This document shows, one piece after another, positions 6,285 to 59,153 of a stretch of DNA of 64,000 nt. Numbering within the stretch: the first letter of the stretch is position 1; every line of letters starts with the position of its first letter. The DNA comes from a virus (taxonomy: Duplodnaviria > Heunggongvirae > Uroviricota > Caudoviricetes): positions 44,954 through 108,953 of the IMG/VR virus record IMGVR_UViG_3300021255_003103; one strand, given 5' to 3'. The notes under the pieces were generated by a model, which was given only the letters and a program-made list of their open reading frames with translations, did no database searches and was not told the origin of the DNA. The position numbers and the translations under genes are program-made.

Positions 6285-6698
6285 ATGATATCATTAAAAG
6301 ACTACATAATTAACGAATCGAAAGAAGACTATGTAAACTCTTTCGCAATATTAAAACCAGGATTTTTAGAACATGAAGAAGCTTGGCTTAAAATGTTAGA
6401 AGATGATGAATGGGATATATTAGACAAAAAGAAATTAACATTATCTAAAGAGCAAGCTGAACAATTATATATGATGCATAAAGGAAAAGACTTTTATGAT
6501 GATCTTGTTGAATATATGTCATCTGGAGAATGTTTATGCGTAAAATGCTATAAGGAATGCGAAGATCCAATTGAAGAAATGGATTCACTTAAAGATAAAG
6601 TTAGAGACACATGGGGAAAGAACGATATGAAAAATGCTATGCATAGTTCTGACTCAATTGAAAATGTAAAACGAGAGACACACATAGTTTTCAAATAG
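6285..6698 (+). CDS. ndk: Nucleoside diphosphate kinase with N-terminal MISLKDYIINES tag (CTS-like family member)
   Basis: NDK motifs are present: FAILKPG (cf. F-I-A-I-KPDG), LVEYMSSGECLCV (cf. L-V-x-YM-SGPVVA) and the active-site H in MHSSDS (cf. IHGSDS). The N-terminus matches the MK-x-L-x-x-YILES family tag. Confidence 0.75.
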   Translation: MISLKDYIINESKEDYVNSFAILKPGFLEHEEAWLKMLEDDEWDILDKKKLTLSKEQAEQLYMMHKGKDFYDDLVEYMSSGECLCVKCYKECEDPIEEMDSLKDKVRDTWGKNDMKNAMHSSDSIENVKRETHIVFK

Positions 6699-15707: not shown

Positions 15708-17339
15708 ATGGATTTTAATAATTATAATTGTTTAGGCGGTTGCAATCCACCACAAGAAGTAATATTAACATATGCTATAAACGATATAAGTAAGATTACA
15801 ATTAACAATAATTGTAATCCTTATGATGTGTCAGATTTACAATATAGTTACAGTATTGATGACTTATGCTGGTCATGTTATATGTCATATGATGATTGTT
15901 TATCTAATACAATTGAATTAGATTCTGATTTTTTTATTAAGGTTAAAGTTTCAGGTCCGATATGTAATGTAACTTATGATAATGAATCAGTAGATTATAA
16001 TGTTCAATTAGTACAAGGATTCAATTTCAATAGTGATACCAGTTCAAATACATATGATCCTTATGCAAATTTAGAAGGCGCATTACAATTACAGCAAGCA
16101 TTAGCAGAAAATGTTTCAAATATTGTAGGATTACCAATATATTATTTTAAGTTAAAACCAGAAGCAAATTCTAAAGATTTGACATTTAAAGAATATACAT
16201 TAATGAATGTTGATTCTGTTAAGCAAATAAAGATGGTTATACAAGATGGTGTTATGCCATCGTCAAAACCAGAATTTGCTGATTGGGGATTAGATTTTCA
16301 GAATGACTGGGAACCTGAAATTACTAAACAGTCATTTGCAACTGCATTTGGAATCAATGCACAGCCAATGGAAGGTGATTTTATATATGTTCCTGTAATG
16401 AAAAGAATGTGGATGGTTAATGGAGCATATGAAGAAAAGAATGGTAATTTAATGTGGCAAGCAACAACTTTTAAAGTAATGCTTTCAAAATACCAAGAAA
16501 AAGATTCAGTAAATTTACAAGATACCGAAGATTTAGTTAACACATTAGTTAAGAACAAATATGAAGATTTGTTTGGTGATGATAATAATCAGACATATGA
16601 TTCAGGAGAATCTAGCAATTCAGCTCCAATATATGCAGCAAACAACTTATATAATGTATATGAATCAGATGCAACAAGAAAATACATGACTTGTGATACA
16701 ATATCAATTGAACCAAACAATATATATTATAGAGGTACATTAATTTCAGACTCTAAATATATGTTTATGACAAATACAGTAGAATCAAAAGTTATATATC
16801 AAAAGCAATTTTGTGGAGAAGAATGCACATGTTCTTTTATTATAAATCCTTTAATTGGTGATTATGAAGGCACTATTGTTCATATTGGAAATATTAATAT
16901 AAATATAAAACAAGATATTAATATTGCAAAATTATATATAGATGTTGATACAAATAATACAATAGATTTATATTTGAATGAAATATATTTAGTTATTTTA
17001 CGATTTAGCAAATGCATGAATCTAATAGATTTTAATGCATATAAATATACATTTAATCATAATATTCCATTATATAAGTTGCAAAATAATCATTATTGGT
17101 TTGATATGGATAATCCAATTTCAAGTTATATAAGTAAATATAATATTGAATATTCAACTACAAATAAATCTGATGTTTGGATTAGCAATTTATATGGAAC
17201 ATTAACAAATTTCAAGTTATTTGATGTATATAATGATACTCTTTCAGATATGCTTGAAATGTATCCAACGCATCAGCATTTAATGATTAATGATACTGCT
17301 CGAAAAATTGTTGGTCTTCCAGGAGTAACTCCAAAATAA
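15708..17339 (+). CDS. Hypothetical 543-aa protein (last gene of the hydrolase operon; possibly virion-associated)
   Basis: ATG ORF coupled to the upstream gene and followed by a terminator. Confidence 0.5.
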   Translation: MDFNNYNCLGGCNPPQEVILTYAINDISKITINNNCNPYDVSDLQYSYSIDDLCWSCYMSYDDCLSNTIELDSDFFIKVKVSGPICNVTYDNESVDYNVQLVQGFNFNSDTSSNTYDPYANLEGALQLQQALAENVSNIVGLPIYYFKLKPEANSKDLTFKEYTLMNVDSVKQIKMVIQDGVMPSSKPEFADWGLDFQNDWEPEITKQSFATAFGINAQPMEGDFIYVPVMKRMWMVNGAYEEKNGNLMWQATTFKVMLSKYQEKDSVNLQDTEDLVNTLVKNKYEDLFGDDNNQTYDSGESSNSAPIYAANNLYNVYESDATRKYMTCDTISIEPNNIYYRGTLISDSKYMFMTNTVESKVIYQKQFCGEECTCSFIINPLIGDYEGTIVHIGNININIKQDINIAKLYIDVDTNNTIDLYLNEIYLVILRFSKCMNLIDFNAYKYTFNHNIPLYKLQNNHYWFDMDNPISSYISKYNIEYSTTNKSDVWISNLYGTLTNFKLFDVYNDTLSDMLEMYPTHQHLMINDTARKIVGLPGVTPK

Positions 17340-18641: not shown

Positions 18642-19277
18642 ATGAAAAACTTAAGTAATTATATTTTAGAATCATATAACACTGAAAAATGGAGTGGATA
18701 TAATCCGGCATTTAATTTATTTAGCGAAGATCCTATTGATTCTTTTAATTATAATGATATTATTACATATTTAAAAAATTTTCTTAATAATAATATTTAT
18801 TATGAACAAACATTTATAATAAAAGATAGAAATTTATCTGGATTTTGTGATATAACTGATAAACAAAGTAAAGAATGGTTAGATACTAAAAATGATGATC
18901 ATAAACGTAAATTTTCATTAGAAGATATTTTGAGTGTTAAATTATCAGAAAAAATATTTTTTGGCAAATTTACTCAAACAGGAAAAATAACAAAAAATGT
19001 TTATGGTTATTTAAAAATTGGTAAATCTAATAATGAAGTATTAATATTAAGTTATACAGAAAATAAAGATGAAGCAATTTTATTTGATACTGTTAAAGAT
19101 TTATTAGATGAAATCAAAAAATATAAAGAAGTAAAAATAGAATTACCAAAAGGTTATGCTGCAAGTAAACAAAACTATGCAAATAGTGTTGAATTATATG
19201 CAGATTTTTCTATAATGAATAAAAAATTTAAACCTAAACACGATACATGTGAATTAGGTATATTTATATATAAATGA
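18642..19277 (+). CDS. CTS-like-tagged hypothetical protein (MKNLSNYILES...)
   Basis: N-terminus carries the family tag MK-x-L-x-x-YILES. Confidence 0.55.
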   Translation: MKNLSNYILESYNTEKWSGYNPAFNLFSEDPIDSFNYNDIITYLKNFLNNNIYYEQTFIIKDRNLSGFCDITDKQSKEWLDTKNDDHKRKFSLEDILSVKLSEKIFFGKFTQTGKITKNVYGYLKIGKSNNEVLILSYTENKDEAILFDTVKDLLDEIKKYKEVKIELPKGYAASKQNYANSVELYADFSIMNKKFKPKHDTCELGIFIYK

Positions 19278-19495
19278 TATCATTACAACAATTTTTATTG
19301 GAAAATTATGAAATTTCCAAAATTACATTAACTGAAGAACTTCATGACGTAATTGTTAAAGTTGGAGATTATTGGAGAATAAAAGGTCATGCTGGAAAAG
19401 GAACAAATACACCTAAAAGAGGATATTGGAAAGCAAAATATGAAACAAAAGAAAAGGCTGAAAATGCATTAAAAGCATACTTTGCAAATAAATAA
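19274..19495 (+). CDS. CTS-like-tagged small protein (MISLQQFLLENYE...)
   Basis: Degenerate family tag; overlaps the upstream stop (ATGA). Confidence 0.45.
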   Translation: MISLQQFLLENYEISKITLTEELHDVIVKVGDYWRIKGHAGKGTNTPKRGYWKAKYETKEKAENALKAYFANK

Positions 19496-19507: not shown

Positions 19508-19954
19508 ATGAAGGCATTTAAAGATTATATTTTAGAAGATAAAGTTACAGAATTTAATTATGCTTCTGAAGGAGATCATAATTTTATTGATGAGGTAATT
19601 GAATTATTGGAATCTAATGGATTTAATAAGACTGAAAAAAGGATATTAAAACCAAAAGAATATAAGATAGTAAATAATGGTTATGAATTATTTGTACGTT
19701 CTGAACAGCATAAAACTATAAAGAATACTAAATTAGTATGTATTCGTAAAGGAGATAATGGTAAATATGACTATTATTATAAATTTTCAAATGATTCTTT
19801 TTGGAGATATACATTTTCTAATAAACAACAAATAGTTAGATTTAGAGATTATCAACACGCACAAACAGGTATATTTGATGTAAAAGATTCTAAATGGCAT
19901 GATAGAATATTACAATCAATAAGAGGAATATTTAATATTAAAAAGGATAAATAA
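19508..19954 (+). CDS. CTS-like-tagged hypothetical protein (MKAFKDYILED...)
   Basis: Family tag at the N-terminus. Confidence 0.5.
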   Translation: MKAFKDYILEDKVTEFNYASEGDHNFIDEVIELLESNGFNKTEKRILKPKEYKIVNNGYELFVRSEQHKTIKNTKLVCIRKGDNGKYDYYYKFSNDSFWRYTFSNKQQIVRFRDYQHAQTGIFDVKDSKWHDRILQSIRGIFNIKKDK

Positions 19955-20598
19955 TGAAACCAATAACTGCATATATTTTTGAAAAGATAAAAAATCTTCC
20001 TGAATCTATTAAAGGATTGATTGTATTCGATATTGATGATACAATATTGAGAGTTGATCCTTCATTAATGGGTGTCTATAAGAAAGAACCAGGTAAAGAT
20101 GAAATACGATTAACAACTGATGAATTTGCTAAAGATCCAGATGCAGAAGACGAATCTAAAAAATCATGGTTTGATTATAGGGATTTTAGAGACCCTGTAA
20201 AAGTATATAATTCAATTATTTCAGGAACTCCTCTTATAAAGAATTTGAAGATAATGGATGACTATATTAAAGCTGGATATGATTTTTGCTTTTTGACAGC
20301 TCGTGGTTGTGAAGATACAATCAAGAAGGCTATAGGAGATTTCCTGAAGTTCAGAGATAAAGATGGTGCACTAAAAGAACTGGGTGATTCATTCAAGAAA
20401 ACATTTTCTCATGCTGTAAATGATGAAATAAAGAAATATCCAGGTAAGACAGATGCTGAGAAAAAAGGAAATGTATTGAAAAAACTTTGCAAGAAATATG
20501 ACAGAGTGGTATTTGTTGATGATGACCAGAAAAATGTACGTGCTGCTCGAGGATTAAATATAGATAATCTTAAAGTTATCAAAGCATGGGATGAATAA
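19954..20598 (+). CDS. HAD-superfamily phosphatase, T4 Pnkp 3'-phosphatase-domain-like, with CTS-like tag (MKPITAYIFEK)
   Basis: DxDxT motif in LIVFDIDDTIL, plus FLTARG and VVFVDDDQKNV blocks, align with the T4 polynucleotide kinase/phosphatase C-terminal domain. Confidence 0.6.
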   Translation: MKPITAYIFEKIKNLPESIKGLIVFDIDDTILRVDPSLMGVYKKEPGKDEIRLTTDEFAKDPDAEDESKKSWFDYRDFRDPVKVYNSIISGTPLIKNLKIMDDYIKAGYDFCFLTARGCEDTIKKAIGDFLKFRDKDGALKELGDSFKKTFSHAVNDEIKKYPGKTDAEKKGNVLKKLCKKYDRVVFVDDDQKNVRAARGLNIDNLKVIKAWDE

Positions 20599-20631
20599 TA
20601 TTAAAATTAAAATTTGGGATAAATAAAAATC

Positions 20632-21279
20632 ATGAAAACATTGCAATTATACATAAATGAATCTTTATCTAAAGAAATAATCGAATTGAGAAATAAATTA
20701 AAGAAATTGGATAAATCAAAAATTTTTGATGGAAATTACAATTTAGATGATTCTTTAGATAAAGAATTTTATGAAATATTAACTTCATTAAATAAGCCAA
20801 ATTCATCAAATACTACTTTAATTAATACATGGAGAATGTTATTTTCAAAATTAGTTGTGGAACCATTAGTTGGTGAATTGATTGGTGATAGCAAATGTGA
20901 ATATTCCTCTATTGATATTGACAGAACTGAAAAATGGGACATTAAATATAATGGAAATATATTAATAGATGTAAAAGCAACGTATAATAATCATACACAT
21001 AATTTTGGATTTGCAGAAAAAGATGCTAATTACATTATAAATTACAATAAAAATGACATTAATAAAAGATACACATTATTTGTTTACCCAGAAATAAAGA
21101 CATGGGAAGATGCTACAAAATTATATAAAAACAAATCTGAAGTTAATATGTTATTAATTAGTTTTTCAGATTTTAAGGAAATATTAGATGACAATAATTT
21201 TGAAGTAAAAAAATCAAATATAATGATTCCATATTCTTTTATTAATGAAAATAATAAATTTAGAAAGTTTAAAAAATGA
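20632..21279 (+). CDS. CTS-like-tagged hypothetical protein (MKTLQLYINES...)
   Basis: Family tag at the N-terminus. Confidence 0.5.
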   Translation: MKTLQLYINESLSKEIIELRNKLKKLDKSKIFDGNYNLDDSLDKEFYEILTSLNKPNSSNTTLINTWRMLFSKLVVEPLVGELIGDSKCEYSSIDIDRTEKWDIKYNGNILIDVKATYNNHTHNFGFAEKDANYIINYNKNDINKRYTLFVYPEIKTWEDATKLYKNKSEVNMLLISFSDFKEILDDNNFEVKKSNIMIPYSFINENNKFRKFKK

Positions 21280-21418
21280 AAAACATTGAAGAAATTATAA
21301 GTAAAGAATTACTAGAAATGTTTTCTAAAAATTATTTACAAGAAAGATTTGTAAATAAATATAAAAAAATTAAAAGTCATTAAGGCTTGGTAATAATAAA
21401 TAAAATTTTAAATTAAAT

Positions 21419-21883
21419 ATGTTTAATAAACTTAGAGAAAAAATTGGTAAATTTATATTACCAAACACTGTAAGAGTAGTTGATGCAGCAGATATGACTG
21501 TTGATGAATTAATGAATAATCATGTTCAAAAACTTGAGCAATTGCCTGGTGTATTTACTAAAGATTTTCTTGAAGATTTAATTAAAGAATATCCTAAATT
21601 TGATCATCCAAATATTGTTGAATCTGATGGTAAAATAAAATTTACTGATGCTAATGGAAAGACAGTACAACTTAAAGTTCCTCTTTTAACAATTGTTCCA
21701 ATCCCATATATTTCAAAAGATAGTATTGATTTAGATAAATATTATAAAGAAAATTTTGGGGAATCAAATCCACCAAAGAATATGGAAGATATAAAGGGTG
21801 TACAAGTAAATGTTCCTGCATTGAATATTGTTCCTATACCTTCAATTCCAATTAAAGAAGATAAAAAGAAAGAAAATAAATAA
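21419..21883 (+). CDS. Hypothetical protein with internal duplicated VP(L/A)L(T/N)IVPIP(Y/S)I motif (untagged)
   Basis: ATG ORF; two copies of a Pro/Ile-rich 13-aa motif. Confidence 0.45.
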   Translation: MFNKLREKIGKFILPNTVRVVDAADMTVDELMNNHVQKLEQLPGVFTKDFLEDLIKEYPKFDHPNIVESDGKIKFTDANGKTVQLKVPLLTIVPIPYISKDSIDLDKYYKENFGESNPPKNMEDIKGVQVNVPALNIVPIPSIPIKEDKKKENK

Positions 21884-23061
21884 TGAAACACTTAAGTGAA
21901 TATTTTTTTGAATCATTATCAAAAGAAAGTATCAAAAAATTAGAAGAATATATTTCTGATGATAATATTGACGAATATATTAAATTAATAAAACGTCATG
22001 GTGCATCATTAGGAATAGATAATGATTCATATGATAATTTTTTTGAAATACATGGATTATCAAAATTAAATTGGGGTAGAAATAATTCTGCAAAAAAACA
22101 GTTTGTTAAATTATTTAGTGAAGAAGACCATTTAGATATATTGACATCAATTGTTAAAAACAATGGTGTTTTATCAATAAAAGATGTTGAAGAAAATGGT
22201 AATATATTTAATTTATGTAAAATAGAAGACAATGATTTTTCTGATGAGGCAAAAACAATCGCAACTTGGACAAATTCAACATCAGCAAATGCAGGACCAT
22301 GTGAAATGCTTTTAAAATTTATATTAAAAGAAGGTCGTACATTTAAAAGTGGAGATGTGGGTATTCACGATGGCGAAGATAAAGAAATGGAAGTTAAAGC
22401 TGCAACAACTGGTAAAAATGCAAGTGGTGGTCATGCTGCAGGTCAAAAGGAAAACAATGGTCAAAAAATTAGAGGAGCATGGTCAATATATTTATACTTA
22501 AATAATAATTTATTTAATTTAGGAGATGATAATGCAGCTGCAGATAAATCAGCATATTTTCAAAATGATAACGGTATTAAAAATTTTAATCAATTAATAA
22601 AAGATAATAAATTAGATAAAGATGATCAATCGTTAAAAACATTATCAAATGGTATTGTTGATGCATTATGTTTTCAATATAATTTTATAACAAACGAAAA
22701 GGATTCAAAAAATTCATTAAATACAATTGATAAATTATATGATGCTGCATATGTTTATTGTAAAAGTATTTATGATAATGGATTTAAAAGACAAGATTTA
22801 TTTAATTTAGTTGGTTGCATACAATTATATCTTTATTCACAAGTAGAGAAATTCGATTATTTCTTTTGTGTACAAGTAGATAAATCTGATGAATCAACAA
22901 ATGAAAACAATGGCAATTATTGGTGTGCAAAAAACTGTAAATCACAAGATACAAAGCTATTAAAATTTAATATAGTAACAAATAATTTATATTTTGGACA
23001 ATTAGATAGTCCTACATCTTCACAAGGTCGTACAGGAAAAATTTATATGAAACTTAAATAA
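21883..23061 (+). CDS. CTS-like-tagged hypothetical protein, 392 aa (MKHLSEYFFESLS...)
   Basis: Family tag at the N-terminus; start overlaps the upstream stop. Confidence 0.5.
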   Translation: MKHLSEYFFESLSKESIKKLEEYISDDNIDEYIKLIKRHGASLGIDNDSYDNFFEIHGLSKLNWGRNNSAKKQFVKLFSEEDHLDILTSIVKNNGVLSIKDVEENGNIFNLCKIEDNDFSDEAKTIATWTNSTSANAGPCEMLLKFILKEGRTFKSGDVGIHDGEDKEMEVKAATTGKNASGGHAAGQKENNGQKIRGAWSIYLYLNNNLFNLGDDNAAADKSAYFQNDNGIKNFNQLIKDNKLDKDDQSLKTLSNGIVDALCFQYNFITNEKDSKNSLNTIDKLYDAAYVYCKSIYDNGFKRQDLFNLVGCIQLYLYSQVEKFDYFFCVQVDKSDESTNENNGNYWCAKNCKSQDTKLLKFNIVTNNLYFGQLDSPTSSQGRTGKIYMKLK

Positions 23062-23076
23062 TAAAATTAAAGCTTT

Positions 23077-23814
23077 ATGAAACAAGTAAAAGTTTGTTTA
23101 GGAAGATTTATGCCCTTCACATTAGGACATCTTAAGATGGCAACATATAAAGATCTAAAAGGTCCAGATAAGGAGCAGAAAGATGCTTTAAGAGAACAAC
23201 CAGACTTAAAAGAAATAGCTAAGCAAAAAACTATTATATTGTCTATATTGACTACAAAGGATAAAGTTGACACAAGACACCCATTTGATGCAGATTTGAT
23301 GAAAGATGAATTAGAATTACTTAAGAAAAACTATTCATCTGAAATTGAAGATATTCTATATGTTAAGTCTGCTGATATATGTGCATGGGGTGAAATGCTT
23401 AAAGAAAAAGGATATCAAGCATCAGTTTGGTTAACTGGCTCAGATGAGTTTGCTATGTACAAAGGCATGGCTATTAAGGTGCCAGAATATGAAGAACATA
23501 ATAGAAACAACTATGACTGCAAAGGTGCTTATACGAATTCATTCTATGTGGAAGAGATAGAACGTACAGATGATGGTGATTTTATATCGTCAATTTCTGG
23601 TACAAAAGTTCGTCAAGCTTTATTAAATAATGATAAAGAATTATTTACAAAAATGATGCCAAAGGGAGCTGACAAGTATTTTGATAAATTTAAAGAAGCT
23701 GTTGAAAATGCTCCAGAACCTAAGAAAAAGACATCATCTAATAAAAACAAAAATAATAAAGTTAAAGAAGGATTAACATCACTTAAGAAATATATATTAG
23801 AATCAATAAAATGA
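23077..23814 (+). CDS. Nicotinamide/nicotinate mononucleotide adenylyltransferase-like (cytidylyltransferase fold); C-terminus ends with tag-like ...SLKKYILESIK
   Basis: GRFMPFTLGH matches the (H/T)xGH nucleotidyltransferase motif of NadM/NMNAT (GRFQPFHxGH); a later ISGTKVR block is present. Confidence 0.6.
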   Translation: MKQVKVCLGRFMPFTLGHLKMATYKDLKGPDKEQKDALREQPDLKEIAKQKTIILSILTTKDKVDTRHPFDADLMKDELELLKKNYSSEIEDILYVKSADICAWGEMLKEKGYQASVWLTGSDEFAMYKGMAIKVPEYEEHNRNNYDCKGAYTNSFYVEEIERTDDGDFISSISGTKVRQALLNNDKELFTKMMPKGADKYFDKFKEAVENAPEPKKKTSSNKNKNNKVKEGLTSLKKYILESIK

Positions 23815-24212
23815 AATCATTAAATAATTATATTAATAATGAATATGTTAATGAAGGATTAAAAGATTCTTTCATTAATATTATAAAAAATTTTTTTAGT
23901 CATGGAGAAGTTTCAAATAAAAAATTAGTTACTATTGAAATGGATCCTAAGATATTTGGAAAATTAGTTCGTGATAAAGAATATTTTAAATATACTAATA
24001 AAGAATATCCTAAATTAGTGCCAAATCAAGATTATACTGTTGATGATTTATGGGAATTATATAAATGTGAATTAGGTGAAGATAAATATGGAAATGAAAC
24101 AACTATCTTTACTTATATAGGGCATGCAGATTTTAGAAAGGGCAAAAATGTAATTGAAGTTCAAGAAGAATATAAAGATTTCGTAGAAAAAATTTTTGCA
24201 AAATATAAATAA
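23811..24212 (+). CDS. CTS-like-tagged hypothetical protein (MKSLNNYINNEY...)
   Basis: Family tag; start overlaps the upstream stop (ATGA). Confidence 0.5.
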   Translation: MKSLNNYINNEYVNEGLKDSFINIIKNFFSHGEVSNKKLVTIEMDPKIFGKLVRDKEYFKYTNKEYPKLVPNQDYTVDDLWELYKCELGEDKYGNETTIFTYIGHADFRKGKNVIEVQEEYKDFVEKIFAKYK

Positions 24213-24216
24213 AAAT

Positions 24217-24543
24217 ATGAAAGCAATAAGTCAATATATTAATGAGTCTCAAGATACATATTCATTCACATTAGACGAAACGAAAATGCTATATTTTTCT
24301 GAAGATGAAATTGGAAAAATTATGAAAGATACTTGGGATAAGAATGGAAAATTTTATAAATTATTAAAAGAATTGGATTATAAGCCTGTTAATAATGATA
24401 TAAAAGATTTTTTAGAACAATGTTTAGATGATGATAGAGTAGCTGCACAGTTTGCTTCTTATATTGCAGACATAATTGGTAGAGACAATTTTAGTATTGA
24501 GCAAGTTCAAAAATTTATAAAAACAAATGATATTGTTGTGTAA
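24217..24543 (+). CDS. CTS-like-tagged hypothetical protein (MKAISQYINES...)
   Basis: ORF-track start 24196 is TTG; the first ATG, at 24217, gives the family tag directly. Confidence 0.5.
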   Translation: MKAISQYINESQDTYSFTLDETKMLYFSEDEIGKIMKDTWDKNGKFYKLLKELDYKPVNNDIKDFLEQCLDDDRVAAQFASYIADIIGRDNFSIEQVQKFIKTNDIVV

Positions 24544-25427
24544 TGAAACATCTATTAACATTTATAAAAGAATCACTTGGCATATTTGAAGGTGGTAATG
24601 CAGTTAAAGCGAATCCTATACCTGCGGTTATTGCACCTAAAGTATATGATGAAATATACAAGAAGGTGCAATCTAAATTTAAAATAGACATGATTCCGTT
24701 AGGCAGTATTGGTAAGAAAGCTGATGATAAGACTAATGGAGATATTGATGTCGCAGTTAAAATTGATAGTAAGGACAAACTCAATGAAATAGTTGATACT
24801 TGTTTTAGTGATTGTGAAATCAATTACACAACAATGGGTACTATTACATCATTTGGATATCCTTATGACATAGATGGTTATAAAGGAATTGCTCAAGTTG
24901 ACTTTATGATTGTTAAAGACATTAATTGGGCAAAGTTCAGATATCATTCACCAAATTTTAAAAAGAATGAATCAAAATATAAAGGTGGCGCAAGAAATTG
25001 TATGTTATGCGATGTTGTTGCATGTATACCAGTAGAAGATGCAAAAGACGAGTATTTTGAAGATGGGAAAACGGTTAAGCGTCATTGGAAACATACATTC
25101 AATACAGAAGGAATATTTATACAATTAGTAGATTTTTGTGGTAAGAATGGCAAGCCATTAAAGACTGGTAAAAAGTTAAAAGAATTTGAGAAATTAGTTA
25201 CTAATGATCCAGAAAACTGCATTAAGTTTATATTTGGAGACAACGGTACAATAGATGATGCTAATTCAGCTGAATCAATTTGGAAAGCTATTCATGATCC
25301 AAAGAAATTCAAATGGGGTGATGACATTCTTGCAAAAATTGAAGAAAAAGTGTACAATGATAAATCACTTGAAGAGTTTGGTTTAGATTTAGAAAACGAT
25401 TTCCCAACAAAATTCTATAATAAATAA
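24543..25427 (+). CDS. Pol-beta-superfamily nucleotidyltransferase with CTS-like tag (MKHLLTFIKES...)
   Basis: GSIGKKADDKTNGDIDVAV matches the GS-x(9-13)-D-h-D-h minimal NTase motif. Confidence 0.5.
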   Translation: MKHLLTFIKESLGIFEGGNAVKANPIPAVIAPKVYDEIYKKVQSKFKIDMIPLGSIGKKADDKTNGDIDVAVKIDSKDKLNEIVDTCFSDCEINYTTMGTITSFGYPYDIDGYKGIAQVDFMIVKDINWAKFRYHSPNFKKNESKYKGGARNCMLCDVVACIPVEDAKDEYFEDGKTVKRHWKHTFNTEGIFIQLVDFCGKNGKPLKTGKKLKEFEKLVTNDPENCIKFIFGDNGTIDDANSAESIWKAIHDPKKFKWGDDILAKIEEKVYNDKSLEEFGLDLENDFPTKFYNK

Positions 25428-25428
25428 T

Positions 25429-26550
25429 ATGAATCATTTAATAGATAAGTACTTAAAAAAACCCGAATATGTAAAAGAACTTTTTAATAAAGAAGTATCA
25501 ATATCATTAAAGGTTGATGGTGCTGCATTTCAAATATCTTATGATAAAGATCAAGACAAGATAACATATCATAAACGTGGTGGTAGTTCAAAAAGTCTTG
25601 GTCCAATTATTGATGAATACACTCAATTAATGAGAAAGAATGTAAATGATGCAATTGAATATTTTGATAATAAAAAAGATATATTAAAGCAATATAAATT
25701 CTATGCTATTGAAATGTTTAATGATTCATATATTTTATTAACTGTAATTGATAATGATAATAATATTATAGATAATGTTTCAAAACTTAAAGAAATTTCA
25801 AAATCATTGAATATTGATTGTGTTCCTATTTTATTTGATGGTAAATTAAATAAAGAACAAATAGATTCTTTATTAGAAATGATGTCATTAGATCCTGAAA
25901 CAAATAATGATACATATAAAGAATATTTAACAAATATTTTTGGTAAAGGTGAATATCAGAAATTTTTAAATGGAGATGAGGTAGAAGGAATTGTACTTAC
26001 ATGGAATACTGATAAGATTGAACAATATAAGATAATAAATCCAGCATTTAAGACTAGACATGATAAAGAAATTAAACAAGGTAATGAAGAGTTCCAGAAA
26101 GAAATGGAAGAACTTCGTGAACTATTTGAGTTCTTTTATGAAAGTCTTAATAAGTATGGAAAATATTATGGTGATAATTGGATTAAGACATTAAATGATA
26201 ATTTTATAATGATGAATGAACAATCTGATTTTCAACGCAAATTAAAAGAATTTAATAATTCTATTAAGCCAAAATTCAAAGATTTCTTTACATTACAATC
26301 AAATAAAATCGATAAAAGAATACAAAAGTTAATTGATGAATATGGAGATAACATGAAATTTTATTATGAAAAATATTTATCATTATTTAATAAACAAAAG
26401 AAACGTAATTTTACAATTTCAAAAGAATTTCAAATGAAAGTCAATGATTTGATTGAAAAATTACAATCAAAAAATGAATCATTAAAATTATATACAAAAT
26501 ATCATATAAAAGCATTAAATAATTATATATTAGAATCAAAATATAAATAA
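25429..26550 (+). CDS. ATP-dependent polynucleotide ligase (Rnl2/DNA-ligase-type nucleotidyltransferase; KxDG motif I); C-terminus ends with tag-like ...KALNNYILESKYK
   Basis: EVSISLKVDGAAFQI aligns with the T4 Rnl2 motif I region (EWVAREKIHGTNFSL). Size is 373 aa. Confidence 0.55.
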   Translation: MNHLIDKYLKKPEYVKELFNKEVSISLKVDGAAFQISYDKDQDKITYHKRGGSSKSLGPIIDEYTQLMRKNVNDAIEYFDNKKDILKQYKFYAIEMFNDSYILLTVIDNDNNIIDNVSKLKEISKSLNIDCVPILFDGKLNKEQIDSLLEMMSLDPETNNDTYKEYLTNIFGKGEYQKFLNGDEVEGIVLTWNTDKIEQYKIINPAFKTRHDKEIKQGNEEFQKEMEELRELFEFFYESLNKYGKYYGDNWIKTLNDNFIMMNEQSDFQRKLKEFNNSIKPKFKDFFTLQSNKIDKRIQKLIDEYGDNMKFYYEKYLSLFNKQKKRNFTISKEFQMKVNDLIEKLQSKNESLKLYTKYHIKALNNYILESKYK

Positions 26551-26555
26551 TTATA

Positions 26556-27062
26556 ATGAAAAATATTATTAAATTTATCTTAGAAAAATTATTACCATTT
26601 AATGTTTGGATAATGGTTGGATTACCAGGTTCAGGTAAGTCAACATATATTAAAGAAGAACTTCCAAAGAATATTGAAATTATAAACCAAGATTCAATTA
26701 GAGTTGAACTTGGTATAATGAAAGATGATGAGCATAAAGCAATTGGAAATTCCGAACAAGAAAAAGAAGTTGCAAGAATTTGTTTAGAACGAATTGATAA
26801 AGCAATTAAAGATAAAAGAGATTTTGTTATTGATAATACAAATATTAAAGCAGGAAGAGTACAAAATTATTATGATAAGTTAAAGAAAGCTAATGCTAAT
26901 GTTCAAATAATCATTATTGATACTCCTAAAGAAATTTGCAAAGATCGTCGTAAAGAACATATACCAGAAAAGGTTATTGATGATATGCAATTAGGTCTTG
27001 ATAAAGTAAAGGATAAATTTAAGAATAATAAAGATACAATAATAGTTACAAATAGATATTAA
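26556..27062 (+). CDS. Polynucleotide 5'-kinase (T4 Pnkp kinase-domain-like) with CTS-like tag (MKNIIKFILEK)
   Basis: Walker A GLPGSGKST; IINQDSIR (cf. T4 INRDDYRQ); FVIDNTNIKAGRV (cf. VIISDTNLNPERR). Confidence 0.7.
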   Translation: MKNIIKFILEKLLPFNVWIMVGLPGSGKSTYIKEELPKNIEIINQDSIRVELGIMKDDEHKAIGNSEQEKEVARICLERIDKAIKDKRDFVIDNTNIKAGRVQNYYDKLKKANANVQIIIIDTPKEICKDRRKEHIPEKVIDDMQLGLDKVKDKFKNNKDTIIVTNRY

Positions 27063-27095: not shown

Positions 27096-27473
27096 ATGAA
27101 ATCAATAAGTAAATATATTTTAGAGTCAAAAAATAATAAAGAGTTAGTTAATTTTATTCATAAATTTGGATCAAAAGATGAGCAAAAATTTGATAAATTT
27201 ATTAATAATTTAGATATTAATAATGATGCTATAAATTTATTAAAAAAGAATTTTAATAATGATTCAGAATTTTATTATATAAATAGTGAATATTCAGATT
27301 CAGATTCATTTCAAGATAAATTACAAGATTTAATCGATGAAATTGAAGATAATGGAGAATTAATTGATGAATGGGATAATGAAGAAACATATATAAAAAT
27401 ATATAATCATTCTGATTTTGGAAAATTAATTTATATTGATATGTATGTACAAATAATTTTAATAGAAAAATAA
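27096..27473 (+). CDS. CTS-like-tagged acidic hypothetical protein (MKSISKYILES...)
   Basis: Family tag at the N-terminus. Confidence 0.5.
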   Translation: MKSISKYILESKNNKELVNFIHKFGSKDEQKFDKFINNLDINNDAINLLKKNFNNDSEFYYINSEYSDSDSFQDKLQDLIDEIEDNGELIDEWDNEETYIKIYNHSDFGKLIYIDMYVQIILIEK

Positions 27474-30030: not shown

Positions 30031-30591
30031 ATGACTTGGTATACTATTTTATTTATAACGGTAATTGCTTTATTTATTGTTAAGTTAGGAATATCATTAT
30101 TTGTCGGTGATTTTGATATGGATGTTGATTTTGACGGTGATAGTGATTTTGATTCATCTAGTGCATTTTCATTTAAAGGTGTATTACATTTTTTGGTAGG
30201 ATTTAGTTCTTATTTATTTGCTCGTTCTCATTCTGAGACTATAAATATTGTTGATGGAAAAGCACAATTTAGTTTTGGAGATTTTACTTGGGCAATTGTT
30301 GTAGGATTAATAGTAATGTTTGGTTTGTTTTATGCATATAAATTAGCGCTAAAAGCAAATAATACAACAAAGAATCCTGAAGATTTTATTTTCAATAAGA
30401 ATTTAATTAATAATTTGAATGGTACAATCTATATTAATTTAGGAAATGGTTCATATTCAGTTCAAGTTAATACACCTGCTGGTACTACAAATGTAACTGC
30501 ATATTATTCAAGTGATGAGTTGGAACCAGGAACTAACGTTGAATTAGAGAAAGATGGAAATAATTTATATATAAAAGATATAGATAGATGA
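30031..30591 (+). CDS. NfeD-like membrane protein (N-terminal TM helices + C-terminal beta-barrel/OB-like domain), partner of the downstream flotillin
   Basis: Two N-terminal TM helices are followed by a central hydrophobic segment. A Gly/Val/Thr/Asn-rich C-terminal strand region (GTIYINLGNGSYSVQVN...GTNVELEKDGNNLYIKDI) is typical of short NfeD proteins encoded next to SPFH genes. Confidence 0.5.
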   Translation: MTWYTILFITVIALFIVKLGISLFVGDFDMDVDFDGDSDFDSSSAFSFKGVLHFLVGFSSYLFARSHSETINIVDGKAQFSFGDFTWAIVVGLIVMFGLFYAYKLALKANNTTKNPEDFIFNKNLINNLNGTIYINLGNGSYSVQVNTPAGTTNVTAYYSSDELEPGTNVELEKDGNNLYIKDIDR

Positions 30592-30956: not shown

Positions 30957-33047
30957 ATGAACGAAACAATTTTAACTTTGTGTTTGATTGGTGGTGGTGT
31001 ACTTTTATTTGTACTAACACTTTGGGGAATTCTTTCTCGTTATCGTCGTTCTGCGCCTGATGAACTTTTGGTTGTATTTGGTAAGTCAGGTAAGATTCAG
31101 GTAACTGGAGAAGATGGTAAGCAACAGACTTTAGTTGTGCCTTCTAAGATTATTCAAGGTGGTGGTTCATTTGTATGGCCTATCATTCAAGACTTCAAAA
31201 AGATGTCAATGAAGCCTATTCAGATTAAGGCTACAGTTGATGGTATTGATTCACAAGCAATTCAATTGCACTTGCCAGTTGTATTGACAACCGCAATTTC
31301 TCGTGACAAGGAAATTCAACAGAATGCTGCAACTCGTTTCTTGAGTGCAACACCAGGTGAAATTCAATCACAAATTCAAGAGATTTTGATTGGTGAAACT
31401 CGTGCTATTATGGCAACAATGCTTATTGAGGAAATTAACGCTGACCGTGATAAGTTCTTGACAAAGGTTCGTAATAATCTTGAACAGGAGTTGACAAAGA
31501 TTGGTTATGATGTTACTAATATTAACATTTCAGAAATTACTGATGATGCCAACTATATTAAGAACATGGGTCAAAAGGCTACAACTCGTAAGCAAGCTGA
31601 AGCTGAGGCAGATATTGCTGAACAGAAGAAGCAAGGAAATGTAAAGATTGCTAATACAAAGAAGGAAGAAGAAATTGCTGTTGCTGCTGCTGAAAAGGAA
31701 AAACAAGTTACGGTTAGTCAAACTCGTCAAGAGCAAGAGGTTAATGTTGCTGCTATTGAAAGAGATAAGCAAATTCAATTGGCAGAAGCTGAAAAGGAGA
31801 GAGAATCTGGTATTGCTGAACAGGAAGCTGCTAAGGTAGCAAATATTGCTGAAGCTCAAGCAACAGCTGAATCTGCAAAGGCTACTGCTAAAGCAAAACA
31901 GATTGCAAATGTATCTGCAGCAGAGGCAGATGCTGAATCTAAGAAAGCTGAAGCTGATGCACGTAAGGTAGCTGCAGTTGCTGCTCGTAAAGCAGAGGCT
32001 GAATCTAATAAAGCTAAGTCTGAAGCTGAGCAAACAAAGGCAATTGCTACTGCACAAGCAGATGCTGAAGCAACTGAAAATGAACAGGAAGCTAAAAAGC
32101 AGACACGTATTGCTCAAGCAAATCAGTTAAAGGAAGCAGAAGTTATCAAGGCTACTCAAGAAAAGGAAGCTAAGGCTGCTGAGTATGAATCTAATAAGAG
32201 ACAACGTAAAGCTGAGCAAGATAAGAAGGCAGGTGTTGCTGAGCAAATGGCAAAGATTGAAGTTGCCCAAGCTCGCGCAAAAGCCGGACAAGCTGAAGCT
32301 GATTCTATTAAGGTTGCTGAAAGTGCTAAGGTTGAAGCAGAAATGGCAGTTGAAAAGACTCGTCAGGATCGTCAAATGGAAGTTAATAAGGCTGCTGCAA
32401 AAGCTGCAGAGGAAAAGTTAAATGCTACTGAAATTATTCCTGCGCAAAAGGCTAAGGAGAAGGCAGTTATTGAAGCCGAAGCAATCAAGCGTAAGGCTGA
32501 GCTTGAAGCTGAAGCAATTAAGGCTAAGATGCTTCGTGAGGCAGAAGCAGAAGCAGAAGCAACTCGTATTAAGTTGAATGCAGAAGCTGAAGGTACAAAG
32601 AATAAGTTGATGGCTGAAGCTGAAGGTAAGCGTGCATCTCTTATGGCTGAAGCTGAAGCTAAACAACAAATGGAACTTGCTCCTGCTATGGCTCTTGAAC
32701 GAATGGTTGCAGCTGTAGGTGGTAATCCTGATCTTGTTGTTCAGTACAAGATGGTTGATCAATATAAGGGTATTGCTGAGGCTCAGGCGAAAGTGCTCGA
32801 GCATATTAACATGGGAGAAGTAACGATCTATGGTGATACAAATACTGGAGCAGATTTTGCTAAGAGTTTCATTAAAAACTTTGCCCCTGCTGTGGATATG
32901 ATTAATGGTGGAGTTAAGGATCAATTCAAGAATCTTTTTGGATTGAGTAATAAAAAGGATGAACTTCCTGCACCTGAAGATCCTAAGCCAGACAATGGTT
33001 CAAAAAGGAATAAGAAAGATACAACATCTTTTGAAGAGGTAAAGTAA
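30957..33047 (+). CDS. Flotillin-like SPFH/band-7 protein (696 aa) with N-terminal TM, SPFH domain and long Ala/Glu-rich coiled-coil (EA-repeat) region
   Basis: N-terminal membrane anchor LTLCLIGGGVLLFVLTLWGIL; SPFH-like block; an extended AEAEAEA/KAEAE repetitive coiled coil as in bacterial flotillins (YqiK/FloT). GC and codon usage are higher than in neighbouring genes. Confidence 0.7.
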   Translation: MNETILTLCLIGGGVLLFVLTLWGILSRYRRSAPDELLVVFGKSGKIQVTGEDGKQQTLVVPSKIIQGGGSFVWPIIQDFKKMSMKPIQIKATVDGIDSQAIQLHLPVVLTTAISRDKEIQQNAATRFLSATPGEIQSQIQEILIGETRAIMATMLIEEINADRDKFLTKVRNNLEQELTKIGYDVTNINISEITDDANYIKNMGQKATTRKQAEAEADIAEQKKQGNVKIANTKKEEEIAVAAAEKEKQVTVSQTRQEQEVNVAAIERDKQIQLAEAEKERESGIAEQEAAKVANIAEAQATAESAKATAKAKQIANVSAAEADAESKKAEADARKVAAVAARKAEAESNKAKSEAEQTKAIATAQADAEATENEQEAKKQTRIAQANQLKEAEVIKATQEKEAKAAEYESNKRQRKAEQDKKAGVAEQMAKIEVAQARAKAGQAEADSIKVAESAKVEAEMAVEKTRQDRQMEVNKAAAKAAEEKLNATEIIPAQKAKEKAVIEAEAIKRKAELEAEAIKAKMLREAEAEAEATRIKLNAEAEGTKNKLMAEAEGKRASLMAEAEAKQQMELAPAMALERMVAAVGGNPDLVVQYKMVDQYKGIAEAQAKVLEHINMGEVTIYGDTNTGADFAKSFIKNFAPAVDMINGGVKDQFKNLFGLSNKKDELPAPEDPKPDNGSKRNKKDTTSFEEVK

Positions 33048-33162: not shown

Positions 33163-34146
33163 ATGGAATTAAATGACGAATATATAATTAAATTATGTTT
33201 TCAAAAAAATTGTGGTCGATTAATTAGAAATTTTAGTTTTGATAAATTAGATAATAATGTTAAAGATTACATAATAAATAGATATAACGATTCATTATCA
33301 ATTGAAGAAACACTAAAAAGAATATATTATAAAATTGAATTTCATCCAAAATGTCCTATATGTGGAAAATTAGTATCTTGGGGTAAATGCGGAAATAATA
33401 AATTTTTTCATAATACATGCAGTTTAAAATGCGCTGGAAAATTAAGTTTGCAAACAATTAAAAAAAAATATGGTTATAGTAATCCAATGGATTTTCCAAA
33501 CGCAAAACAAAATTTAGAAAATACATGTTTAAAAAAATATGGAGTTAAACATGTATTACAAAATAAAGATATAAAGAAAAAACAAGAGCAAACATGTATT
33601 AAAAGATTTGGTACAAATAATATTTTTTCATCCGAAATTGGAAAACAAAAAATAAAAGAATCATTAATAAAACATTTTGGTGTAGATCATCAAATGAAAT
33701 CTCAAGAAATAAAAAATAAATTTAATTGGAAACAATCAGTAGAAAAACAAATTGAAACAAAAAGAAAAAATAATTCTTTTCATATTTCAAAACCAGAGGA
33801 AGAATCTTATATATTATTAAATAATAAATTTAATGATGTAAAAAGACAATACAAATCAAAAAGTTATCCTTATTGTTGTGATTTTTATATTCCAAGTTTA
33901 GACCTATATATTGAATGTAATTATCATTGGACACATGGCGGTCATCCATATAATGAAAACGACATTAATGATATAAATAAAGTAAAAGAATTAAAATCTA
34001 AAAATAAAAAATTTTATAATAATGTTATAATAACATGGACAGTAAGAGATGTTAATAAAAGAAACATAGCCAAAGAAAATAATTTAAATTATTTAGAATT
34101 TTGGAGCATTAATGAATTAAAAAAATGGATAAATATATATAAATAA
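33163..34146 (+). CDS. Zn-ribbon + repeat + Vsr/DUF559-like (PD-(D/E)XK) endonuclease-domain protein; paralog of the N-terminal part of 48997..50763(-)
   Basis: CPICGK...C..C zinc ribbon; tandem (K)KYG(V/Y)-containing ~27-aa repeats; C-terminal CDFYIPSLDLYIECNYHWTHGGHPYNEN ... NVIITWTVRDV fits the DUF559 pattern (DF...l.iE.dG..H ... w.v.R). About 330 aa are strongly similar to the other copy. Confidence 0.5.
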   Translation: MELNDEYIIKLCFQKNCGRLIRNFSFDKLDNNVKDYIINRYNDSLSIEETLKRIYYKIEFHPKCPICGKLVSWGKCGNNKFFHNTCSLKCAGKLSLQTIKKKYGYSNPMDFPNAKQNLENTCLKKYGVKHVLQNKDIKKKQEQTCIKRFGTNNIFSSEIGKQKIKESLIKHFGVDHQMKSQEIKNKFNWKQSVEKQIETKRKNNSFHISKPEEESYILLNNKFNDVKRQYKSKSYPYCCDFYIPSLDLYIECNYHWTHGGHPYNENDINDINKVKELKSKNKKFYNNVIITWTVRDVNKRNIAKENNLNYLEFWSINELKKWINIYK

Positions 34147-47014: not shown

Positions 47015-47112
47015 ATTTACTTAAATTTTCAATAGGATAAGAAAATTTTTATTTTTATATAAATTAAAATTCTCAATAGAGAAATAACAAATAAATTTTG
47101 ATTATAAATAAT

Positions 47113-58431: not shown

Positions 58432-58758
58432 TTAACTATCATTCTGTTGGGTTTCTTTATATTTCTTTTCAATTTCTATATTATGTTTTGTAATATTCAT
58501 ACCTATAATATCATTCATATCAAATCCTAAATCATATGCTATATTACAAATATTATTTAATATATCCCCAATAGATATTGCTGCTTTAGTTTTTGTTATT
58601 TTCGTAAAACTTCCATGATCTTTTATTAGTGCATCATTTAATTTATTTGCTAATGATCCAACATTATTCTGTAAGTCCAATATAACTGAAAATGGACCAA
58701 GTTCTATTGGATAATCTATATATTCACGAATTGTTTTTTGATAATCATTAATTTCCAT
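58432..58758 (-). CDS. MazG-like nucleotide pyrophosphohydrolase-fold protein (second copy)
   Basis: EYIDYPIELGPFSVILDLQNNVGSLANK ... ISIGDILNNICNIAYDLGFD resembles the MazG/NTP-PPase helical core (E-x-x-E ... E-x-x-D). Confidence 0.5.
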   Translation of the reverse strand: MEINDYQKTIREYIDYPIELGPFSVILDLQNNVGSLANKLNDALIKDHGSFTKITKTKAAISIGDILNNICNIAYDLGFDMNDIIGMNITKHNIEIEKKYKETQQNDS

Positions 58759-58775
58759 ATTACTTAAACTTTTAT

Positions 58776-59153
58776 TTAATCATTATACCAACTATCTTTC
58801 ATATATCTTTGTGGATACTGATTTATGTTTTCTCTATTATCTCCATTACCATGAACAGTATTTGTTTCTTGACGTTCTTTAACTTTTATTATTCCAATTT
58901 TCATTATATCTTCTAAAGAACATCCCATATCGTCAGCAGCAGCCCATATATACCATAAAACATCTGCTAATTCTTTTTTTATTGCATATTTTGTTTTATC
59001 ATCAAAAATTTGATTATTATCCCTTAAACATTTTTTAACTTTTTCTGCAGCTTCACCAGCTTCACCATTTAATCCAAGTATCGGATATATAATAGGCAAG
59101 CAATCATATACTTTTGATGATTTCATGAATGTTTCATATTCTTTAAGTATCAT
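58776..59153 (-). CDS. mazG: MazG-family nucleotide pyrophosphohydrolase
   Basis: LGLNGEAGEAAEKVKK ... KELADVLWYIWAAADDMGCSLEDIM matches the MazG EExxE / ELxDxLW motifs. Confidence 0.65.
   Translation of the reverse strand: MILKEYETFMKSSKVYDCLPIIYPILGLNGEAGEAAEKVKKCLRDNNQIFDDKTKYAIKKELADVLWYIWAAADDMGCSLEDIMKIGIIKVKERQETNTVHGNGDNRENINQYPQRYMKDSWYND

Follow-up and report, generated by a model that had tools for sequence, protein, structure and literature searches.

A T4-like leader peptide on predicted RNA-repair enzymes in an accessory-gene region of an uncultured jumbo myovirus

We analyzed a 64,000-nucleotide stretch of viral DNA (positions 44,954 to 108,953 of IMG/VR record IMGVR_UViG_3300021255_003103; hereafter, the window) and in particular a run of genes at 18.6–27.5 kb, most of whose predicted products begin with the same short leader peptide, or tag. 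The leader, about ten residues long with the consensus M-K-x-[LI]-x-x-[YF]-I-x-E, is common to 12 open reading frames (ORFs) of the window (Table 1). Among them are genes for a polynucleotide kinase, a phosphatase of the HAD superfamily, a nucleotidyltransferase of the Pol-beta superfamily and, outside the run, a nucleoside diphosphate kinase (NDK) at 6.3 kb. A predicted RNA ligase and a NadM-like enzyme encoded in the same run have no N-terminal leader and carry the tag at the C-terminus instead. Together with the NDK gene, the run forms a hotspot of accessory genes in a gut-type jumbo phage, a myovirus of Bacteroidota type, and its tag probably serves to load a kit of RNA-repair enzymes into the phage head.

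Ten strict and two relaxed leaders were found among the 107 ORFs of at least 50 amino acids, against a chance expectation of 0.057 obtained from composition-matched N-termini. One of the tagged ORFs had been listed from a TTG codon at 24196; its true start is the ATG at 24217, the site of its leader. In 38 leaders from five genomes, the information lay at positions 1, 2, 4, 7, 8, and 10, with positions 3, 5, 6, and 9 varying freely; I-x-E at positions 8–10 was present in all 38 of the ten-residue leaders compared. Codons vary at the conserved positions (TTA/TTG/CTA/ATA/ATT; TAT/TAC/TTT; ATT/ATA/ATC; GAA/GAG), and since these changes are synonymous or conservative, selection acts on the peptide; on the same grounds, conservation at the DNA level, as for a promoter or recombination site, was rejected. 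The capsid targeting sequence of phage T4 is MKTYQEFIAE (PMC8442874); residues 4 and 7 of the T4 leader matter for targeting, residues 8 and 10 for processing, and the T4 protease gp21 cleaves after L/I-x-E (PMC9026906). At these functionally important positions, the window leader closely parallels the T4 sequence. In the structural model of the Pol-beta-type nucleotidyltransferase, the leader forms a short helix (residues 4–11) followed by a disordered linker (residues 13–18). A preliminary description of the window had noticed a capsid-targeting-like tag on, or flanking, the end-healing and sealing enzymes; most of the enzymes do bear such a leader, in a genome with T4-type head genes, and all the ORFs and motifs that it named were found where it had placed them. 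A 741-residue protein without family match (9945-12170) starts with MKSFPSTLNES, a degenerate leader with a hydrophobic residue at position 4, L8, E10, and S11 and with no aromatic residue at position 7; it may be a processed structural protein.

The head genes of the window include those for a gp23-type major capsid protein and for a gp21-type prohead protease that continues into a scaffold-like region. In its scaffold part, the latter contains ten tandem 12-residue repeats, W-[IVL]-x-E-E-[YF]-[SA]-P-E-[IF]-Q, at residues ~290–437 (46145-46590), and the protein has the highest density of aromatic-[ILV]-x-E motifs in the window (1.9 per 100 residues vs. 0.29 overall). Each repeat contains the aromatic-[ILV]-x-E core also found in the tag, and the repeats could be both cleavage sites and docking partners of the tag. 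The homologue from Tenacibaculum phage PTm1, annotated as 'prohead core scaffolding protein and protease', contains EKWILES and SYINES. In the capsid protein of the window, [LI]-x-E sites within the N-terminal 47 residues comprise MLKE (residues 20–23) as well as AIHE and EIHE (residues 40–46); a site near residues 20–24 is common to the capsid proteins of the window, PTm1, and Sphingomonas phage PAU. The nearest capsid proteins are 31–37% identical and come from a 462-kb uncultured phage, from Tenacibaculum phages pT24 and PTm1, from PAU, and from Prevotella Lak megaphages. Shine-Dalgarno motifs were absent upstream of start codons. From the head genes, the capsid relatives, and the starts without Shine-Dalgarno motifs, we place the source phage among the Bacteroidota-associated jumbo myoviruses, with head assembly of the T4-like kind.

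The cultured phage PAU (JQ362498.1), whose capsid protein is 35% identical to that of the window, has an analogous L-x-E leader, MK[TS][LI]xx[LM][YF]E, on 17 ORFs within 90664-146715; 13 of the 17 lie at 100.2–113.7 kb, around genes for head completion, portal, protease, and capsid proteins. In PAU, the leader has a different sequence from that of the window, with glutamate as residue 9. The PAU record labels one leader-bearing ORF 'scaffolding' and three 'internal capsid protein'. The PAU capsid protein is encoded with 585 residues and has 520 in the mature form, as determined by N-terminal sequencing (PMC5646251); by residue count, the cut falls at, or one residue from, L62-M63-E64. Within the 100 kb of PAU examined, the tagged proteins are small, and no enzymatic domain was recognised in them.

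The tag is not confined to N-termini. Among 58 ligase homologues, 37 (plus five with a variant shifted by one residue) bear it about 28 residues past the core, and 25 (plus five) run in frame past the tag into at least six unrelated downstream domains, including a homologue of window ORF 24217 and a DUF285 repeat domain. Fusions of the form ligase-tag-SQDKYF... were found in the relatives P0013, P0014, P0021, P0027, and others. The NadM-like enzyme continues through two tandem tags into a 95-residue domain in relative L001, through a tag into a 400-residue domain in L006, and through a tag into the Pol-beta-type nucleotidyltransferase in P0099; many of its homologues at 30–47% identity terminate in a SLxxY[IL]xE-like tail. 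Located at domain junctions and ending in the protease motif, the tag looks like a polyprotein cleavage site. The preliminary description had spoken of tag remnants flanking the enzymes; these are conserved C-terminal and internal copies, often at polyprotein junctions.

Recoding of stop codons was ruled out as the origin of the fusion ORFs: they are intact under the standard code, and intact ORFs of 1748 and 2215 amino acids in the window also count against it. Proteins with DUF285 (BspA-like) repeats are frequent tagged cargo, often behind the ligase (L001, 9276-9968 and 12718-13212; P0004, P0005, P0034, and P0037); in them, the tag is followed by a further motif, EKL-x-INK[DN]-x-K, that is shared with other tagged proteins. 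In L005 (11007-11366), the ligase end is untagged, and the domain fused to the ligase in P0012 follows downstream in another frame and without ATG; the arrangement looks like a deletion or frameshift that lost the tag.

The kinase of the run was matched by AAA_33 (E-value 1.6e-20), phrog_505 'polynucleotide kinase' (1.5e-21), and, over the kinase domain only, NCBIfam TIGR04075 bacter_Pnkp (1.7e-9). Its best solved relative is the kinase domain of Clostridium thermocellum Pnkp (4gp7, 1.1e-5), and BLASTP aligned it with T4 Pnkp (3e-6; the query sequence was a 100% match to T4 records) over residues 19–124, spanning the P-loop, D-x-x-R, and DTN blocks. The Walker A motif (GLPGSGKST), the catalytic Asp-x-x-Arg (in INQDSIR), and the DTN block (in VIDNTN) by which Pnkp-type 5'-kinases are recognised are all present, in agreement with the kinase assignment of the preliminary description.

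The phosphatase had been taken for the other half of a split Pnkp, which was not confirmed. Its FDIDDT and VDDDQKNV motifs are present, and it was matched by Pfam Hydrolase (34.8 bits; cut-off of 26.4), DUF2608 (29.5 bits), and phrog_415 'polynucleotide kinase' (5.9e-10), so that membership in the HAD superfamily stands. It has an insert of ~65 residues after motif I, and no solved relative was found by sequence in the solved-structure library with either the single sequence or the profile. The comparison of its profile with T4 Pnkp by hhalign gave a probability of 25% over 33 columns, with the likeness confined to motif IV; a detached Pnkp phosphatase was rejected on this basis, and membership in the Pnkp subfamily with it. 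From these matches, the protein is a genuine but generic HAD phosphatase with no specific relation to Pnkp phosphatases. The kinase and the phosphatase are encoded by separate genes 6 kb apart, not as one polypeptide, and in L006, no kinase was found within 10 kb of the block holding the phosphatase. Among the best 120 of 956 homologues compared, 119 carry the tag, in 57 different leaders that vary freely at non-motif positions; the bodies of these proteins are 78–92% identical and nearly all of exactly 214 amino acids, compared with ~50–75% identity for the ligase and the Pol-beta-type nucleotidyltransferase of the same genomes.

The ligase was matched by Pfam RNA_ligase PF09414 with 29.9 bits (cut-off of 27). 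In 21 homologues, K28, D30, and G31 are each at least 90% conserved and E186, G187, and K201 are invariant. Its model (mean predicted local distance difference test score of 89.1) has helices over residues 205–346 and no OB domain, and the C-terminal domain is helical and Rnl2-like. The top Foldseek matches were T4 Rnl2 structures (2hvr, 2hvq, and 1s68; 1.5e-6 to 1e-5), with TM-scores of only 0.33–0.49, in part due to domain orientation; Naegleria, fungal, Rnl1, and archaeal RNA ligases followed, and DNA ligases were far lower. No significant match was obtained from the sequence search of solved structures, either with the single sequence or with the profile. By family model and predicted fold, the protein is a putative Rnl2-like RNA ligase, as the preliminary description had proposed.

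The Pol-beta-type nucleotidyltransferase, also named as such earlier, has the GS...DIDVAV motif, with G54, S55, D67, D69, and D120 invariant in 22 orthologues, and its fold is nearest to the palm and thumb of Pol beta/lambda. Pfam gave only weak matches to Polbeta and NTP_transf_2. Its gene lies directly upstream of the ligase gene in the window, L001, L004, L005, and L006; this adjacency, the Pol-beta G-[GS], and three carboxylates are RlaP-like traits, but RlaP itself (PF10127) was rejected, having no match to the window protein or to 21 orthologues up to an E-value of 5. The strict leader was found in 102 of 120 orthologues, and ~13 more have L or V at position 7. These leaders end in a second [LIV]-x-E just before GGNAV, where the rare untagged orthologues begin (MSGNAIK, MGGYAVK). 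The boundary of the leader thus coincides with the N-terminus of untagged proteins, and the leader is therefore detachable: its removal would restore the native N-terminus.

The NadM-like enzyme was matched by phrog_3041 (1.9e-11) and phrog_395 'cytidyltransferase' (2.6e-7). It contains GRFMPFTLGH and ISGTKVR, and all 23 of the distant homologues compared keep G9, P13, H18, and R179. The best solved relatives of the profile built from these homologues are NadM-type nicotinamide mononucleotide adenylyltransferases (NMNATs; 2qjo, 1f9a, and 2qjt; 7e-7 to 2e-6); the alignments span mainly the first 60 residues, and PPAT and TmcAL-like families match as well. Pfam CTP_transf_like was matched by 21 of the 23 homologues, the window protein itself being below Pfam cut-offs, and the window sequence alone had no significant match in the solved-structure library. 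The NMNAT of the preliminary description is thus retained as a NadM-like nucleotidyltransferase of the HIGH superfamily and a candidate NMNAT. Its NDK was confirmed (Pfam NDK, 72.7 bits vs. a cut-off of 27, E-value 3.4e-20, residues 19–137, with the NAMHSSDS block). No Nampt-like gene was found among the window ORFs scanned against families. The proposed toolkit for the salvage of nicotinamide adenine dinucleotide (NAD) is a weak reading of one enzyme with a putative substrate and a generic NDK. Overall, family and structure searches upheld the earlier kinase, ligase, Pol-beta, and NDK assignments, favoured the NadM one in part, and did not uphold the Pnkp phosphatase; setting aside the HAD subfamily and the substrate of the NadM-like enzyme, we hold the families as assigned here with high confidence.

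Relatives of the window phage that carry the tag are all uncultured. L001, from a 441-kb contig, is syntenic with the window, has ~19 tagged genes, and encodes a ligase that is 72% identical; tagged cassettes present in only one of the two lie between conserved genes, and the enzymes keep their place, much as in the variable internal-protein hotspots of T-even phages (PMC12373910). The tag persists as far out as L006, whose ligase is 34% identical: the HAD protein and two nucleotidyltransferase paralogues are tagged there, and the NadM-like enzyme is the tag-joined fusion described above; no kinase was found in this 21-kb locus, which holds the HAD protein, nucleotidyltransferases, and ligase. 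The conserved block consists of the HAD, NadM-like, Pol-beta-type, and ligase genes, and the kinase gene is more mobile. Searches of 50,697 phage records by tblastn gave no match for the ligase, the HAD protein, or the 73-residue tagged protein (19274), and a scan of viral contigs found no relatives of the ligase.

We propose the following mechanism. The leader would do for these proteins what the capsid targeting sequence does in T4 and would dock them onto the scaffold core of the prohead; the gp21-type prohead protease would then cleave after the leader glutamate, and the mature protein would be retained in the head and enter the next host with the DNA. Where the tag joins two cargo domains, as it does in relatives, one tag would bring in two proteins, which the protease would separate. 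Acting together, the kinase, the HAD phosphatase, the Pol-X-like nucleotidyltransferase, and the ligase would heal, fill, and seal broken RNA ends, and, being ready-made, the kit would mend tRNA or other RNA that host nucleases have cut before the phage can translate its own genes. Such a kit would make sense because tRNA-cutting nucleases block the synthesis of any counter-measure. The sequences show the enzyme families, the tag with its positions and its conservation as a peptide, the polyprotein architectures, and the T4-type head genes. Targeting, cleavage, packaging, injection, and the RNA substrate are what we infer here, the steps from tag to capsid and from capsid to host by analogy. 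That the tag is an address for the prohead combined with a cleavage site we consider probable; for the whole chain, from the tag to a packaged and injected RNA-repair kit, we would go only a little beyond even odds.

Several observations weigh against this mechanism. The T4 targeting sequence is N-terminal, and a targeting role of the C-terminal and internal copies is putative; internal tags retain Met-Lys, and the downstream domains might be translated separately. The Pol-beta-type enzyme most resembles DNA polymerases of family X, and profile comparisons of the HAD phosphatase gave no link to RNA 3'-phosphatases. In L004 and L005, the Pol-beta-type enzyme, the NadM-like enzyme, and the ligase are untagged, though their neighbours are tagged, and the Pol-beta homologue of phage Lak-B6 is untagged and encoded among replication genes; the enzymes therefore work without the tag, and packaging is not obligatory. 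The labels of the leader ORFs in the PAU record are the depositors' words and untraceable to data. The resemblance to family X polymerases would also suit a kit that is packaged by the tag but serves DNA and nucleotide pools, with nick and gap repair of the incoming genome and with NDK and the NadM-like enzyme supplying nucleotides and cofactors. We judge this unlikely, as the best matches of the ligase are RNA ligases (Rnl2, Rnl5-type, Trl1, Rnl1, and Rnl3), DNA ligases scoring much lower, and as its lack of an OB domain and its helical C-terminal domain are Rnl2-like; moreover, the closest kin of the kinase are polynucleotide kinases from phage and bacterial RNA-repair systems, and a ligase, a polynucleotide kinase, a HAD protein, and a ligase-adjacent Pol-beta nucleotidyltransferase make up a described RNA-repair set of jumbo phages (PMC7824862).

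The tag might instead be a docking or processing peptide of the cytoplasm, attaching enzymes made after infection, as in T4, to a common hub or marking polyprotein junctions for a protease outside the capsid, so that the enzymes would not be virion cargo. In keeping with this, the tag is used at either end of a protein and inside it, whereas the T4 sequence is strictly N-terminal; a C-terminal tag with two to four trailing residues gains nothing by cleavage, which suggests binding, and the module in L005 adjoins metabolic and replication-type genes. However, the tag is found on a great variety of proteins, among them DUF285 repeat proteins, small basic ones, and many without assignment, and a generic address fits them better than one complex. 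No glutamate-directed [LI]-x-E protease other than the prohead protease was found in the window, the scaffold fused to it repeats the four-residue core of the tag ten times, and the analogous leader of PAU occurs on an annotated scaffold protein and clusters with head genes; we therefore regard a purely cytoplasmic role as improbable. Finally, the common N-terminus could be without any role in the protein, as a relic of cassette shuffling or a start context in a host that does without Shine-Dalgarno motifs. The cassettes of the window and L001 do differ exactly between tagged genes, upstream Shine-Dalgarno motifs are absent, and ATG AAA is a common strong start. Yet positions 4, 7, 8, and 10 are kept despite codon changes, with 3, 5, 6, and 9 free; 57 distinct leaders occur on a HAD protein otherwise 78–92% identical; the motif persists where no start codon lies, at C-termini and within long ORFs; and a second [LIV]-x-E stands exactly at the core boundary of the Pol-beta-type enzyme. 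Such a relic or start context is therefore very improbable.

The nearest known system is that of the T-even internal proteins IPI, IPII, IPIII, and Alt. There, as in the window, a leader of ~10 residues stands at the N-terminus of unrelated proteins, with M1, K2, a hydrophobic residue at position 4, an aromatic one at position 7, I8, and E10; it ends in L/I-x-E, an S77 protease and a gp23-type capsid protein are encoded, and the locus is a variable hotspot. T4 Alt is an enzyme cargo and is also processed at its C-terminus (PMC9026906). Unlike the T-even cargo of small nuclease inhibitors, the cargo predicted here consists mostly of end-repair and nucleotide enzymes; the runs comprise 12 to ~19 tagged genes, the tag is also found at the C-terminus and at junctions between cargo proteins, the carriers are Bacteroidota-type jumbo phages, and packaging is deduced from the genes. 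Heal-fill-seal RNA repair has been described for T4 and jumbo phages (Iyer et al. 2021, PMC7824862). The window shares with T4 Pnkp plus Rnl1/Rnl2 and with the jumbo-phage sets (ligase, polynucleotide kinase, HAD, and RlaP) the same predicted activities and a Pol-beta nucleotidyltransferase beside the ligase, but its HAD protein is outside the Pnkp subfamily, its nucleotidyltransferase is Pol-X-like and not Pfam RlaP, and the NadM-like enzyme is a constant partner. T4 RNA-repair enzymes are ordinary early proteins, whereas those of the window bear a capsid-targeting-like leader.

Predicted packaged NAD/ADP-ribose enzymes and polyvalent proteins (Iyer et al. 2022) and the ejection proteins of phiKZ and SPN3US are likewise enzymes in myovirus heads thought to be injected ahead of expression; a gp21-like protease cuts after glutamate, and several domains are delivered in one polypeptide. 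Packaging in those cases is deduced from fusion to MuF or portal domains or from propeptides of at least 100 residues, compared with a short T4-like leader in the window, and the cargo comprises ART, Macro, NADAR, Nudix, and virion RNA polymerase instead of kinase, ligase, nucleotidyltransferases, and NDK. There are precedents for leader loci in T-even phages, for gp21-type processing in giant ones, for RNA-repair sets in jumbo phages, and for NAD/ADP-ribose enzymes predicted to be packaged (PMC9026906, PMC5694885, PMC7824862, PMC9503650, PMC12373910). We failed to find in the searchable literature a T4-like leader on a whole nucleic-acid repair kit, which accords with the earlier remark that leader-tagged RNA-repair enzymes are undescribed, nor the use of such a leader at C-termini or polyprotein junctions or its spread through a large uncultured jumbo-phage clade; the paper on Jug phages contained nothing on this subject.

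The features of the run and the head genes are listed in Table 1. The G+C content is ~25% across the window, and the plus strand carries nearly all genes from 1 to ~48.9 kb. Tail sheath and cell-wall hydrolases were also identified in the window by family scans. No tRNA genes were found in the window, and the only DNA similarity to cultured phages consisted of 93–98-bp matches, ~74% identical, to Lak phages inside the gene of the Pol-beta-type nucleotidyltransferase.

Table 1. Tagged genes, their neighbours, and head genes of the window.
Feature	Coordinates	Strand	Basis
NDK, leader MISLKDYIINE then S (variant one residue longer)	6285-6698	+	Pfam NDK
Neck-type protein	15708-17339		phrog_679 head closure; immediately upstream of tagged region
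Tagged, no assigned function, 211 aa, MKNLSNYILES	18642-19277	+	No family match; L001 orthologue 88% identical
Tagged small basic protein, 73 aa, MISLQQFLLEN	19274-19495	+	Kept in L001, L004, L006
Tagged, no assigned function, 148 aa, MKAFKDYILED	19508-19954	+	Missing from L001
Tagged HAD-superfamily phosphatase; DxDxT = FDIDDT, motif IV = VDDD	19954-20598	+	Pfam Hydrolase, DUF2608, phrog_415
Tagged, no assigned function, 215 aa, MKTLQLYINES	20632-21279	+	No significant family; L001 orthologue 47% identical
Untagged DUF2589-like protein within tagged cluster	21419-21883	+	Pfam DUF2589 24.8 bits vs. cut-off 23; L001 orthologue 92% identical
Tagged, no assigned function, 392 aa, MKHLSEYFFES	21883-23061	+	L001 has a different 524-aa tagged gene here
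NadM-like HIGH-superfamily nucleotidyltransferase (candidate NMNAT), no N-terminal leader	23077-23814	+	phrog and profile matches
C-terminal tag copy on NadM-like enzyme, LTSLKKYILES then IK-stop	23773-23805	+	Equivalents in L001, L006, P0099, and many distant homologues
Tagged, no assigned function, 133 aa, MKSLNNYINNE	23811-24212	+	Missing from L001
Tagged, no assigned function, 108 aa, MKAISQYINES	24217-24543	+	In frame behind ligase in many relatives
Tagged Pol-beta-superfamily nucleotidyltransferase, Pol-X-like palm and thumb, leader MKHLLTFIKE then SLGIFE	24543-25427	+	Fold and invariant residues
Predicted Rnl2-like ATP-dependent RNA ligase; motif I K28-V-D-G, EGIV, K201; helical C-terminal domain	25429-26550	+	Pfam and fold
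C-terminal tag copy on ligase, IKALNNYILES then KYK-stop	26506-26538	+	Read from sequence
Tagged Pnkp-type polynucleotide 5'-kinase; P-loop GLPGSGKST, D-S-I-R, DNTN	26556-27062	+	AAA_33, phrog_505
Tagged, no assigned function, 125 aa, MKSISKYILES; closes tagged run	27096-27473	+	Leader
T4 gp21-type prohead protease fused to scaffold-like region	45278-47014	+	Peptidase_S77 7.2e-12; phrog_207 head maturation protease 5.3e-44
gp23-type major capsid protein	47098-48882	+	Pfam Gp23 1.9e-27

Beyond these features, elements of IS200/IS605 type were found within the phage at 56206-57474 (-), 57532-57951 (+), and 61378-62601 (-), comprising two TnpB-like genes (OrfB_IS605 and a Cas12f1-like TNB domain) and one Y1 TnpA (3.3e-27). 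The genes at 33163-34146 (+) and 48997-50763 (-) are a paralogous pair with long common stretches, e.g., YCCDFYIPSLDLYIECNYHWTHGGHPYNEN; the former matches DUF7487, and the latter, on the reverse strand directly after the capsid gene, resembles an inserted selfish element. A 696-residue SPFH/Band 7 protein with a very long coiled-coil region rich in Ala, Glu, and Lys is encoded at 30957-33047 and is preceded by a gene for a small membrane protein (30031-30591), an unusual pair amid a block of structural genes. Beyond that block, the minus strand encodes a MazG-type pyrophosphohydrolase (58432-59153), with a second small MazG-like ORF adjoining, and a ResIII/DEAD helicase (59358-61229), which together mark the change to replication-type genes.

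Taken as a whole, it is possible, although we would put it below even chances, that a clade of uncultured jumbo phages uses a portable ten-residue address and cut site, N-terminal, C-terminal, or interdomain, to load a changing set of enzymes, including a full RNA heal-fill-seal kit, that is injected ready-made and could undo abortive-infection defences that cut tRNA or other RNA, even with phage translation already blocked, with two-domain polyproteins being split in the head. PAU offers a cultured, tractable model for the address hypothesis. If the leader is a capsid address, the proteins injected by phages would extend beyond small inhibitors, ADP-ribosyltransferases, and RNA polymerases to whole repair pathways, and ready-made delivery would explain how defences that cut tRNA and stop translation are countered before counter-measures can be made. 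As a simple sequence rule, the tag could allow the set of proteins injected by uncultured jumbo phages of gut and rumen to be read directly from metagenomes and could reveal new anti-defence proteins among the many tagged proteins without assigned function; being short and usable at more than one place in a protein, such a tag could also be of help in loading large capsids with foreign proteins.

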